Positions 1,477-8,702 are shown, counted from the first letter of the stretch. The stretch is DNA of 10,290 nucleotides from Promethearchaeota archaeon (GCA_048939465.1 JBHLPL010000069.1:1-10290), one strand, 5' to 3'. Notes: generated from the letters alone by a model not told the origin. Numbers and translations are program-made.

Positions 1477-2388
1477 CTACCTTAGTTCTTTGATTATATC
1501 TTCAAGTTTCTCGTAAGTGCCGTCCTGGATTTTCTCCAGATAGTGTTTCGCATGCACTCTCGTTGTTTCTGTTAGATCAATAACCTTCCAACCCTGCTTT
1601 TTCATAAGCTCCTTCTTTGTGGTCGGAAACACAGCATCTTCCTTCAGTACTTCCTCCAGTGACTTGACCCCCAAATTCTTTGTGACTTTTGGAAATCTGC
1701 CTGTCTTCTGAAAAACCTTCAACCTGGCTGCATCTTTGTACATCTTGATTGGATGAAAGGTTATGATGGCTCTCTTTGCATCCGAAGACTTCACCTTTTT
1801 ATATATTTCTTCCAGTTCACCATCGGTGAACTGGTAGAGATTGTGTCGACCCTTCCCGAATAGACGCGTATATAATACGTCAGATTCAGTCAATGGAGTC
1901 TGTACCGAAAGGTCTACGCAGTGGATGATATTATAATCTTCCATGATTCTGATAATGTCTTTCGTCAATTCTCCTGTCAAGCTCCGAATCTCCCAAGCTA
2001 ATCTAACTCCTGCAGTATTTACGCTCGAAAGGAAGTCTCGAATGGATTGAGCTTTCCCCCTACCAAATTTCATTCTTGGAGGAGTCATGACATGTAGATA
2101 CCGCGATCCCAGCAGCTGACAGATTTCGATCATCTTGTCAAAGCTTTCAATATTCTCAGCAACAGGTTCTAAGAGGTATTGATGAGACACACTCTTGTGA
2201 CAGCGAACAGAGAATTCAAAATCCTTAGGAACTCGCCTTCTCCAAGATCTTACCGTTCTGTGATTAGGAATTTCATAAAAAGTCGAATTGACCTCAACAA
2301 AGTCGAACGCCTTAGAGTATGCTGAAAGATTATCCATCCCCTGAATTTGGAAGTATGCCCAACCGCCCGCACCAATTCGTATTTCCAT
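1477..2388 (-). CDS. DUF72 (YecE/UPF0759) TIM-barrel protein, divergent paralog A, with a ~75-aa C-terminal extension
   Basis: IGAGGWAY, YSKAFDFVEVNSTFY, W...VPKDFEFSVR and YTRLFG match DUF72 blocks; tail FPTTKKEL...LEKIQDGTYEKLEDII resembles DUF2795-type small helical modules. Confidence 0.88.
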   Translation of the reverse strand: MEIRIGAGGWAYFQIQGMDNLSAYSKAFDFVEVNSTFYEIPNHRTVRSWRRRVPKDFEFSVRCHKSVSHQYLLEPVAENIESFDKMIEICQLLGSRYLHVMTPPRMKFGRGKAQSIRDFLSSVNTAGVRLAWEIRSLTGELTKDIIRIMEDYNIIHCVDLSVQTPLTESDVLYTRLFGKGRHNLYQFTDGELEEIYKKVKSSDAKRAIITFHPIKMYKDAARLKVFQKTGRFPKVTKNLGVKSLEEVLKEDAVFPTTKKELMKKQGWKVIDLTETTRVHAKHYLEKIQDGTYEKLEDIIKELR

Positions 2389-2434: not shown

Positions 2435-3631
2435 TTGGCTAAGCTTTTCTTTGGATGTTCTGGGTGGAGCTATAATGAATGGGTTGGTCCCTTCTACAAG
2501 CATGCCAAAAAGAGCAAATTATCAGCCTATTCTGATGTTTTCAAAACAGCGGAAATTAATAGCACTTTCTATGCCTACCCTAAGGCAGGCGTTGTTCAGG
2601 GTTGGGCAAGATATAGCCCCGAGGAATTCATATTCTCGGCAAAGATTCCGGGACAAGTAACCCACGACAAAGAACTCGAAGTTGAAAAAGACGTGGAAGA
2701 TGACCTCAATCATTTTTTTGCTCTAATGGATCCGCTCTCAAACGTTGGAAAAATGGGATGCTTCTTAATTCAATTGCCTCCGAGACTTAGATTTATGCCC
2801 AGCAAAGTTGAGGATTTCTACGCGCTTCTCCCAGATAAACATAGGTTCGCCGTGGAATTCAGAAATAGAACTTGGCTCAGTGACAGATCGATCGAATTAC
2901 TAAGCAAATACAACATAGCCTACACAATAATAGACGAGCCGCTATTACCGCCGGACGTCCACATCACAGCCGATTTTGCATATTTCCGATGGCACGGACA
3001 TGGAAAAGAGCCGTGGTATAATTACCTTTATACAGAAGATGAACTCAAGGAATGGATTCCAAAGGTACAGGAAGTTCAGGAAAACGTAGACGAGGTGTAT
3101 GGATACTTCAACAACCATTATCATGGATATGCACCTGAAAACTGCTTAGATATAATGGAAATGCTGGGTATTGCAACGCCATTGCAAAGGCAGATCAGAG
3201 AGAGAATCAAAGATTATCGTAGAAGACCTCCTAAACCGCCTCCCGAACCCAAAACACTGATGGACTTTATTGGAGAACCTTCCCCAGAAGCAGAAGAGAA
3301 AAGAAGAAGGATAGAGGAGAACACCGAGTCCCTTCTTCGGCTTTTTGCTGACGAAGGCAGGATTCTCAGAGGAAGGGTAATAAGAGATACTGAACTTGAA
3401 AACCTGAAGGCTGGAAAATCTAGAGTTTCAGCTAAGATTAGAGATTACAGCATAGTAATCGATCGTAAAGGCAGAATAATCCAACATGACTGCAATGATT
3501 GGCAAAGACGAAAGAATCGAAAGAAGTTTTGTAAACATATTGTGAAGTTGCTTCTTACTCTGCCTGAAAGGGAATCCAGAACCATACTTAGAGATATATC
3601 AAGGAATCTAGCAGGCTGGAGATTCGAGTAG
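2435..3631 (+). CDS. DUF72 protein, canonical paralog B, fused to a Pro-rich linker, PIP-box-like motif and C-terminal SWIM-type zinc finger
   Basis: FGCSGWSY, YSDVFKTAEINSTFY, FSAKIPGQVTH, LIQLPP, AVEFRN, YFRWHG and YFNNH are canonical DUF72 motifs; C-terminal HDC-x12-CKH. TTG start with GGAGG RBS 7 nt upstream. Confidence 0.92.
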   Translation: MAKLFFGCSGWSYNEWVGPFYKHAKKSKLSAYSDVFKTAEINSTFYAYPKAGVVQGWARYSPEEFIFSAKIPGQVTHDKELEVEKDVEDDLNHFFALMDPLSNVGKMGCFLIQLPPRLRFMPSKVEDFYALLPDKHRFAVEFRNRTWLSDRSIELLSKYNIAYTIIDEPLLPPDVHITADFAYFRWHGHGKEPWYNYLYTEDELKEWIPKVQEVQENVDEVYGYFNNHYHGYAPENCLDIMEMLGIATPLQRQIRERIKDYRRRPPKPPPEPKTLMDFIGEPSPEAEEKRRRIEENTESLLRLFADEGRILRGRVIRDTELENLKAGKSRVSAKIRDYSIVIDRKGRIIQHDCNDWQRRKNRKKFCKHIVKLLLTLPERESRTILRDISRNLAGWRFE

Positions 3632-4946: not shown

Positions 4947-5203
4947 TCTTAGACCTGAAATCCACGTACATGGTTTGTTTCGGATCTTCTTGGCAGTTGC
5001 TGAAAGGATCAGCTGAAAAAGAATCGGCTTTCAACAAGCCTAAGAACTCTTCTGGGGATCGCTCAAAAGAATCACTGTTCGCAGAAGGGAATGAACATCG
5101 TGATTTATCCGACGAGATGATTCTTCTTGCGTATGCTAGAGTCTTGCGGTGTTTTTATCTACTGTCCGCAAGAAGACCCCATCTGGAAGCGTAGAGGCGG
5201 ATT

Positions 5204-5219
5204 GCGAGGAGCTTAAATA
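5204..5219 (+). promoter_or_regulatory. Archaeal promoter predicted to initiate at about 5240, upstream of the omegaRNA-like scaffold
   Basis: Purine-rich GCGAGGAGC then TTAAATA (5213-5219); the usual ~25-nt TATA-to-start spacing gives about 5240. Confidence 0.45.
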
Positions 5220-5230
5220 CTTACTTTCAC

Positions 5231-5380
5231 GACAAACACATGGAATTGAGTCGAGGTAGCACTCGCCGATTCGCGAAAGTGAAGCTTCAGGGCAGGAACT
5301 GCCCGTAGGGCCTGTAAGATATATCCCGTTGGGGAATGGATGAAACAGGAAGCTCCTTGCGAAGGCCAGGAGTAGTTCAC
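5231..5380 (+). mobile_element. Non-autonomous IS200/IS605-family remnant (MITE/PATE-like); right end well defined, left end tentative
   Basis: Right end GAAGCTCCTTGCGAAGGCCAGGAGTAGTTCAC: imperfect subterminal hairpin CTCCT/AGGAG, GAAG at its foot and terminal TCAC, consistent with the IS608/ISDra2 guide-cleavage-site rule. Vestigial TnpB tail peptides GQELPVGPV and (after a frameshift) MKQEAPCEGQE*. A second TTCAC at 5226-5230 is the candidate left boundary. Confidence 0.6.
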
Positions 5381-5396
5381 ACTCGGATAATGAGAA
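5288..5396 (+). ncRNA. TnpB-type omegaRNA (reRNA) scaffold (about 5288-5380) plus predicted ~16-nt guide ACTCGGATAATGAGAA
   Basis: Stem GGGCA/TGCCC with GGAAC loop (5290-5304); long-range stem CCTGT(5311-5315)/ACAGG(5345-5349) enclosing TCCC/GGGA hairpin; right-end hairpin 5352-5373; loop GAAC(5296-5299) complementary to GTTC(5375-5378) forming the pseudoknot; same element order as the ISDra2 TnpB reRNA. Confidence 0.7.
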
Positions 5397-5575
5397 ATCT
5401 GTGGCCTAGATCATACCAATATTGGGCGGGGTTGCGGGGTTCATGAGATGCCTTCTCATGAGTCGGGGGATGCTTGCGTCTAGTAGCTAGATGAAGCGAA
5501 TAATGATTCATTCTTTAGCGTCGATTTGTTGAGCATAAGACAACCTGCAAACCTTTGTGAGATCGATAAGCGAGT

Positions 5576-7986: not shown

Positions 7987-8117
7987 GTTTAATCTCCCCT
8001 ATTCTTCTCACAGGCACGATTTGGCCGGAATTTAAGGGAATTGATTCCTTTCTGTTTTTTTAGCAAAAAGATAGAAATCTGAATAATCAGAGAAGACAGA
8101 GCTCAATAGACCTGTCT

Positions 8118-8702
8118 CTATTTCTTCATAGAAATATAGAGATCCCGGATTTTTCTCTCAAGACTCAACTGTTCCTCAAATTCTTCATCAGACATGATAA
8201 TCCTTCTTGCGGTTTTTGCAGCGTCCTGCTTAGTTATTAGATCAACATCTTCAAAAGAGGAAAGTTTTTCATAGTACTCCTCAGACTCTGCTAGGGCACT
8301 CAGTCTGTTTTCCGCTTTAACAATTCCTTCAGCAGTTTTTTTGTTATACTCCAATCCAAGACCGATCTTGTTTAAGCTATCGACCACCAGTTTTACAAGC
8401 TCCCTTTGAACCTTAACCCCTTCACGAGTCTCTCCTATCATAAAATTGAAAACTTCCGCCGTGGATTGATAGAAGCTTTCAATCAAATGTCCTGACCTCT
8501 TCTCACTGACCACCTGGACCATATCAGCTTTCTTCAGCTTCTGAATATGGTGGTAAACGGTCTGGGGGGACAGCTCCAAAGTTTCAGCGATTTGGCTTAC
8601 ACTCATTGGCTTGGCCCTGAGCAGGAATATTATTCTTCTCCTGGTCTCATCTCCAATTAATTGACAGCACTCTGGGTCTCTTATGATCTTTACAGGTTTC
8701 AC
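8118..8702 (-). CDS. ArsR/SmtB-like winged helix-turn-helix transcriptional regulator with C-terminal extension
   Basis: DETRRRIIFLLRAKPMSVSQIAETLELSPQTVYHHIQKLKKADMV is a typical ArsR/HTH_20 domain; GTG start with GAGGTG RBS. Confidence 0.9.
   Translation of the reverse strand: MKPVKIIRDPECCQLIGDETRRRIIFLLRAKPMSVSQIAETLELSPQTVYHHIQKLKKADMVQVVSEKRSGHLIESFYQSTAEVFNFMIGETREGVKVQRELVKLVVDSLNKIGLGLEYNKKTAEGIVKAENRLSALAESEEYYEKLSSFEDVDLITKQDAAKTARRIIMSDEEFEEQLSLERKIRDLYISMKK

Follow-up and report, generated by a model that had tools for sequence, protein, structure and literature searches.

The window analysed here, by which we mean the whole stretch of 10,290 nucleotides at JBHLPL010000069.1:1-10290, belongs to the Promethearchaeota archaeon assembly GCA_048939465.1 (1.96 Mb in 152 contigs, 43% GC, 91% complete), which we designate G000, with contigs C2, C105 and so forth. 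It carries a gene-less element of the IS200/IS605 type with no coding capacity beyond an 18-codon tail of tnpB. The original prediction had placed at 5204-5400 a promoter-bearing TnpB guide-RNA (omegaRNA) cassette; this extent must be corrected to 5159-5380, as set by an empty orthologous site in the genome G001. The motifs that it had listed are present, namely the TATA at 5213-5219 (a TATA-like TTAAATA), CCTG(T)/(A)CAGG at 5311-5315/5345-5349, a hairpin of the right end (5352-5373) and, with 5380 as its last base, the terminal GTAGTTCAC. Chance would account for far less than this, BLAST and nhmmer having recovered 14-16 near-full copies. The features of the locus are as follows.

5154-5158, plus strand: TTTAT target or transposon-adjacent motif (TAM), outside the element; defined by 17 left junctions and the empty site in G001.
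5159-5380, plus strand: gene-less IS200/IS605-type element (PATE/MITE), 222 bp; defined by the empty orthologous site on G001:C28 and by BLAST and nhmmer copies.
5177-5196, plus strand: left-end subterminal hairpin (TnpA recognition), degraded here; from the family consensus, with homologous left ends in the elements on C2 and C105.
5212-5219, plus strand: archaeal TATA box CTTAAATA (family consensus TTTAAATA); a conserved block, with the same box upstream of tnpB.
5243-5272, plus strand: family-specific 5' hairpin, GAATTG.../...CAATTC; 11 pairs kept in 20 of 20 gene-less copies.
5273-5286, plus strand: variable spacer containing most of TTCGC-GAAA-GTGAA; the family block of lowest identity (58%), its length varying in distant copies.
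5287-5343, plus strand: tnpB remnant, the last 18 codons and stop, overlapping the omegaRNA core; 17 of 18 residues identical to C2 TnpB residues 366-383.
5290-5295 with 5299-5304, plus strand: omegaRNA helix A, GGGCAG-GAA-CTGCCC, 6 bp; compensatory changes in tnpB-linked relatives.
5311-5314 with 5346-5349, plus strand: omegaRNA helix B, CCTG/CAGG, enclosing helix C; invariant.
5320-5327 with 5332-5338, plus strand: omegaRNA helix C; in tnpB-linked relatives 7 of 7 pairs kept, 6 of 7 compensatory.
5352-5360 with 5365-5373, plus strand: right-end hairpin, both the last omegaRNA stem and the TnpA-bound DNA hairpin; strong covariation in copies and relatives.
5376-5380, plus strand: transposon-encoded motif TTCAC, at which the right end is cleaved; almost all copies and relatives have it unchanged.
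5381-5396, plus strand: predicted 16-nt guide ACTCGGATAATGAGAA, host DNA flanking the right end; placed by the confirmed right end at 5380.

Thirty related genomes were searched for the locus, and in G001, which is from the same genus, both flanks of the window were found with a short gap between them. Read base by base, G001 runs ...GGTGTTTTTAT and passes at once into sequence orthologous to 5381 onward, which fixes both ends of the element (5159-5380) to the base; the same site confirms that a guide lying directly after the right end, as had been proposed, starts at 5381. In G001 the TTTAT abuts the right flank, and the insertion in the window is accompanied by no target-site duplication. 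Insertion without target duplication is the signature of IS200/IS605 transposition. The element has moved as a unit into TTTAT/ACTCGG without duplicating its target, and species of the genus are polymorphic for the insertion. When the empty-site junction of the window species was sought in metagenome contigs, no exact match was obtained. Seventeen left junctions in G000 have the consensus TTTAY (TTTAT in 7, TTTAC in 3, the remainder 1-2 nt off), and the terminal TTCAC is the element end in every copy and at the G001 empty site. The family, like the parent elements on C2 and C105, has an imperfect subterminal hairpin at each end, the two being on one strand, and has no terminal inverted repeats.

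Several other features of the window were recorded. A 74-aa open reading frame at 4970-5194 (plus strand) has no Pfam match and enters the left end of the element, and the segment 5038-5136 is unaligned to G001; this frame may be spurious, or may represent a gene whose end was changed by the insertion. Two divergent, adjoining DUF72 paralogues lie at 1477-2388 (minus strand) and 2435-3631 (plus strand). A scan of the window with Rfam 15 (E<=1) returned no match to an omegaRNA family; its sole match was a weak, C/D-box snoRNA-like one (RF00324, 24 bits against a threshold of 40, E 0.17) at 8070-8160 on the minus strand, which partly overlaps the start of an ArsR-type HTH gene and the region just upstream, and could be an archaeal C/D sRNA or a chance match.

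BLAST searches of G000 with 5180-5420 gave 19 strong matches, all ending at about query position 201, that is, window 5380; with longer flanks the homology spanned from about 5153 to 5380/5381. An nhmmer profile recovered 15 full-length copies of 189-233 bp. In the multiple alignment every copy terminates in GTAGTTCAC and is followed by an unrelated 3' flank, and similarity on the left begins after TTTAT or TTTAC. With the covariance model R1, described below, we detected in G000 two tnpB-linked copies (104-106 bits), 16 gene-less copies (46-102 bits) and three weak matches; as the assembly is incomplete, these copy numbers are lower bounds. Mean pairwise identity among the copies is 75% overall and is unevenly spread, reaching 82% in the TATA block (5201-5222), 83% in the 5' hairpin, 82-87% in helices A-C and 94% at the right-end tip, against 58-64% in the spacers.

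The family consensus of the left-end hairpin comprises 8 bp, CTCCATCC-GAAA-GGGTGGAG. Three of the eight positions form Watson-Crick pairs in the window copy, two form G-T pairs and three are mismatched, so that it is joint worst among the well-aligned copies, and DNA folding of the window left end yielded no hairpin; the folding energies of the end hairpins were weak in all copies, which is why pairs were counted instead. The right-end hairpin of the same copy has eight of its nine pairs formed. The right end and the RNA core of the window copy are intact; it may have lost its mobility and yet supply RNA.

The TATA box found in the window also precedes tnpB in the C2 element and in a relative of that element in another genome. 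To judge from the sequence, the window box is inherited from the tnpB promoter, and it would act as a promoter here as well. The 5' hairpin lies about 23 nt further downstream; among the 20 gene-less copies compared, which include copies from two other Asgard families, its changes are mostly G-U-compatible and one is a double compensatory change. Transcription in archaea typically begins about 23 nt past the TATA box. By this spacing, the predicted start would fall at the base of the 5' hairpin, giving a scaffold of about 138 nt plus guide. The hairpin was not found in tnpB-bearing elements, and 80 tnpB loci of other genomes yielded nothing similar to the segment 5220-5286. A second hairpin, TTCGC-GAAA-GTGAA at 5270-5283, had been put forward as a GNRA hairpin of the cassette; it can be read in the sequence, but it falls in the least conserved stretch (58%) and is absent from other copies. 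We rejected it as a family feature and regard it as a chance feature of the window copy.

Homologues of the tnpB gene were collected from other genomes. The closest, at 61-83% identity, are in Asgard metagenome-assembled genomes; next come those of Methanoperedens and Methanosuratincola. A conserved block which terminates in GTAGTTCAC is common to their 3' regions. R1 was built from 18 tnpB-linked 3' regions, of which 17 came from other genomes and one from the C2 element, and included no gene-less copies; RNAalifold predicted from these 18 sequences four helices with 26 pairs, 14 of them showing compensatory change. The model matches window 5271-5380 at 98.3 bits (E 3.6e-28), near the scores of the tnpB-linked copies. 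The RNA core of the window element therefore matches that of genuine tnpB loci, and the claim of an omegaRNA scaffold without a nuclease gene is borne out by a model made from tnpB-linked sequences only. Folding of 5230-5400 as a single sequence (z-scores of -2.2 and -2.0 on the two strands) was uninformative alone.

Two details of the predicted structure needed amendment. The stem GGGCA/TGCCC with a GGAAC loop does exist at 5290-5304, but in the consensus structure it is a helix of six pairs, GGGCAG/CTGCCC, closed by a GAA loop; tnpB-linked relatives have compensatory variants of it such as CCGTAG/CTACGG. The tnpB tail had been described as frameshifted; its last 18 codons are in frame, with a stop 10 codons upstream and no homology beyond, so that the gene is truncated rather than shifted. 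As to the predicted pairing of loop GAAC with terminal GTTC, the loop variants GAAC, GGAC and GGGC of relatives are compatible with it, whereas one pair is lost with UAAC and with GAAA; the 3' partner does not vary, which puts this pairing beyond the reach of covariation. With longer tnpB-linked sequences, RNAalifold paired GGACU of the coding region with AGUUC instead. The window element is compatible with a loop-to-3' pseudoknot, as far as its sequence and that of its relatives go.

When the gene-less copies were aligned to R1, 89% of the pair cells held standard pairs, compared with 33-50% when the partners were slid by 1-3 columns; paired cells amounted to 94% in helix A and 89-91% in helices B and C. 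Double changes in these copies cluster in the right-end hairpin, a structure that TnpA also requires in DNA form. Conservation prevails in helices A-C, where some G-U changes occur and several copies have disruptions. That the covariation of the gene-less copies lies mostly in the right-end hairpin, with helices A-C merely conserved, counts against reading them as sources of a guide RNA used in trans.

This distribution raises the alternative that the element functions at the DNA level only, its single-strand hairpins aiding excision and integration by TnpA, with no role as RNA. The hairpins of both ends are classical substrates of TnpA and bear most of the covariation among copies, and it is as single-stranded DNA that IS200/IS605 elements transpose (PMC10055086). 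Outside the terminal hairpins, however, lie helices A-C and the TATA box, and numerous elements of G000 have the same ends and lack these helices. We found at least 22 other paired left- and right-end elements of 132-409 bp without an R1 match (for example C39:18552-18917, C138:26983-27277 and C61:13282-13413), the shortest of which, at 132 bp, consists of the ends only; because such elements exist in G000, helices A-C are dispensable for mobilisation. In distant archaea, moreover, the same helices are the conserved, covarying 3' scaffold of tnpB and are accompanied by different end hairpins. We therefore consider a purely DNA-level role very improbable. About 47 solo left-end-like matches also occur in G000, and the family of about 300 bp among the elements without an R1 match carries the 3' region of another tnpB that is split over C70 and C55.

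A Pfam search of the six-frame translation of G000 detected one complete tnpB, on C2; C105 carries a second tnpB, and C70 and C55 carry fragments. The C2 protein has 383 aa and the domains HTH_OrfB_IS605, OrfB_IS605 and Cas12f1-like_TNB; it aligns with ISDra2 TnpB over residues 2-362 (E 1e-60) and possesses the motifs GVDVG, FENL and DRDVN of the D-E-D triad together with the zinc-finger cysteines CxxC...CxxC. The last 19 codons of the C2 gene plus 38 nt, down to ...GCAGTTCAC, are 91% identical over 97 nt to window 5285-5381, and the C2 element starts after TTTAT, with the same left-end hairpin and a TTTAAAT box. The window element is related to the IS1341-type tnpB element on C2. The cognate tnpB with a matching scaffold that the original prediction called for is accordingly present, its D-E-D triad intact, and G001 carries a tnpB that is 83% identical. 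At G000:C73:1803-2347 lies a degraded tnpB remnant, which comprises residues 236-361 at 25% identity as well as the tail; an omegaRNA core with a full score (104 bits) comes after it.

The sole Y1 TnpA gene is on C105, in a 1.86-kb tnpA-tnpB element with ends of the same type, and its product (G000:C105:1150-1554) is the only Y1 TnpA found among three genomes of the genus. An intact cognate TnpB and one Y1 TnpA are thus encoded elsewhere in G000. The C105 TnpA reads Y-F-H where ISDra2 TnpA and an Asgard relative in the genome G014 have the H-x-H of the HUH motif, so that Tyr replaces the first His; the region of the catalytic Tyr, WSRSYF, is present. The protein may be impaired or non-canonical, and mobilisation of the window family by it is a prediction. 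The second TnpB of G000, of 433 aa (G000:C105:1557-2837), has Gly at the position of the RuvC-II Glu of C2 TnpB (IIVGDLEV against IVFENLTI); its active site could be rearranged or inactive.

We consider it likely that the window element is a non-autonomous IS200/IS605 PATE/MITE whose omegaRNA would use the C2 TnpB in trans. The element keeps the left end, the tnpB TATA box, the 5' hairpin, roughly the last 95 nt of the parent and the right end. Transcription would start near 5242/5243, some 23 nt past the TATA box and where the 5' hairpin has its base, and would proceed through the scaffold into the flank, producing an omegaRNA that carries the guide ACTCGGATAATGAGAA; this RNA would be loaded in trans by C2 TnpB. 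The complex would then cut the site once the element had vacated it, and the occupied site would be spared, the guide match being preceded there by TTCAC and not by TTTAT. A MITE borrowing TnpB in trans was also one of the readings offered by the original prediction and is the simplest; it gains support from the cognate C2 tnpB and the 16 copies, with loading in trans as the presumed step. The TnpA weighs against it, since the only one found in the genus has Tyr in place of the first HUH His.

The same TnpA bears on another explanation, namely that the window copy, or the family in its entirety, is an inert relic which spread as PATEs do, its omegaRNA-like part being inherited baggage that is neither transcribed nor used by TnpB. 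The non-canonical HUH motif of the sole TnpA would agree with this, as would the decayed left hairpin of the window copy, the age of the copies as reflected in their mean pairwise identity of 75%, and the broken pairs of helices A-C in several of them. On the other hand, the TATA box, the 5' hairpin and helices A-C are conserved above the spacers, the layout is kept in three Asgard families, and the window copy scores 98 bits, almost at the level of tnpB-linked loci; PATE families without the core still spread, which argues that the core is not simply obligatory baggage. Such a relic seems to us unlikely, though by no means negligible.

The 3' flank, which would act as guide, differs in each of the 16 gene-less copies; dispersed copies with different guides were a possibility raised in the original prediction. 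Within G000 the window guide is unique at 0 mismatches, and its matches with 1-3 mismatches are at chance level, none of them after TTTAT. For 18 guides searched against G000, 0-mismatch matches were confined to the guides themselves and matches with 1-3 mismatches occurred at chance frequency; two of the latter follow TTTAT, each with 3 mismatches. Eight exact 16-mer matches to the window guide were found in IMG/VR, none with a TAM and none extending further, which is consistent with chance. Because the guides are local flanks without a second TAM-adjacent target, a role in homing or retention fits them and a domesticated guide with a fixed target does not; as the left hairpin of the window copy has decayed (3 of 8 mismatched), homing retention is perhaps moot for that particular copy. 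A tRNA-like 3' end (GGTTCGAATCC...CCA) was noticed at about 1412-1445 of L008 (G000:C68), some 30 nt upstream of the TTTAT of the C68 copy; ARAGORN called no tRNA in this stretch, which is possibly an intron-containing tRNA or a fragment.

The original prediction had also entertained a domesticated stand-alone guide for a TldR-like regulator without nuclease activity or for some other Cas12-like effector; in the version considered here, its target in the host or in a virus would be fixed. An own promoter without an adjoining nuclease gene would suit such a role, and the second TnpB, on C105, with Gly at the RuvC-II Glu position, could be taken for a candidate partner. The scaffold, however, matches the lineage of the catalytically intact C2 TnpB; the guide is a local flank that changes with each of the 16 copies, and neither the genome nor IMG/VR offers a second match next to a TAM; and the site is empty in G001, a genome of this genus, which means that the locus is no fixed host gene. 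We find this proposal hardly credible.

The cassette is not confined to G000. Gene-less elements L117-L121, from G014 and G024, which represent two other Asgard families, have the same layout with different end hairpins: a left hairpin, a TTTAAAT box, 22-24 nt, a GAATTG.../...CAATTC hairpin, a variable spacer, the scaffold and the right end. The architecture is thus widespread in Asgard archaea. One could take this further and suppose that the cassette is a dedicated, promoter-driven stand-alone omegaRNA gene, found in at least three Asgard families and outnumbering the nuclease gene 16:1, and not a mere deletion derivative, the 5' hairpin replacing RNA encoded within tnpB or making processing unnecessary. 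If so, a single TnpB would be fed by a dispersed guide array; we regard this more ambitious version as distinctly unlikely.

PATEs (palindrome-associated transposable elements) were defined in Haloquadratum walsbyi as gene-less IS605-derived elements (Dyall-Smith et al. 2011, PMC3119063) and are also described from Geobacillus stearothermophilus by Meers et al. 2023 (PMC10055086), according to whom PATEs often encode omegaRNAs, on which the TnpB of other insertion sequences has to act in trans. Like the PATEs of Haloquadratum and Geobacillus, the window family is gene-less, has IS605-type subterminal hairpins at both ends and many dispersed copies, inserts beside a short target motif without duplicating it, and shares its genome with parental tnpB/tnpA elements. 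It differs from known PATEs in its Asgard host, in the retention of the archaeal TATA box of tnpB, in having the 5' hairpin in place of the upstream part encoded within tnpB, and in its TAM (TTTAY, as against TTGAT or TTAC). For the stand-alone omegaRNAs of OMEGA systems, Altae-Tran et al. 2023 (PMC10691335) describe, after Altae-Tran et al. 2021, mobilised examples that function in trans with compatible effectors and that add target sites without duplication of the nuclease gene. As portrayed there, they resemble the window family in being mobilised loci without an effector or transposase, with effector-bearing loci in the same genome; their function in trans is reported, whereas that of the window family is presumed. 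With stand-alone omegaRNAs described there and PATE-borne ones in PMC10055086, the novelty of the locus had been over-rated.

The arrangement is also that of the ISDra2 TnpB-omegaRNA (Nakagawa et al. 2023, PMC10097598; PDB 8H1J, 8EXA), in which the transposon right end marks the limit of the scaffold, with the guide beyond it. The ISDra2 pseudoknot joins -5..-3 with -103..-105 (PMC10097598), and the window counterpart is similar in position: its hairpin is situated about 80-90 nt upstream of the guide, and the loop could pair with -6 to -3, a compatibility and nothing stronger. Unlike ISDra2, the window element has a helix A loop of 3-5 nt in place of a large stem 1 loop, and no RNA sequence similarity between the two is detectable.

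The Asgard host, the retained archaeal promoter and the family-specific 5' hairpin are modest variations on a published kind of element, and the window element reveals no new mechanism. It provides an archaeal case, clean and resolved to the base, of an IS605 element that has no gene but bears a TnpB guide-RNA scaffold, and for which the empty site, the nuclease and a candidate transposase are all known. As a natural cassette of promoter and scaffold, about 140 nt long, it is suited to tests of trans-acting omegaRNAs with the 383-aa TnpB. For the biology of the group, it means that guide RNA, nuclease and transposase, whose separation has been reported for bacteria, are separate in Asgard archaea too.
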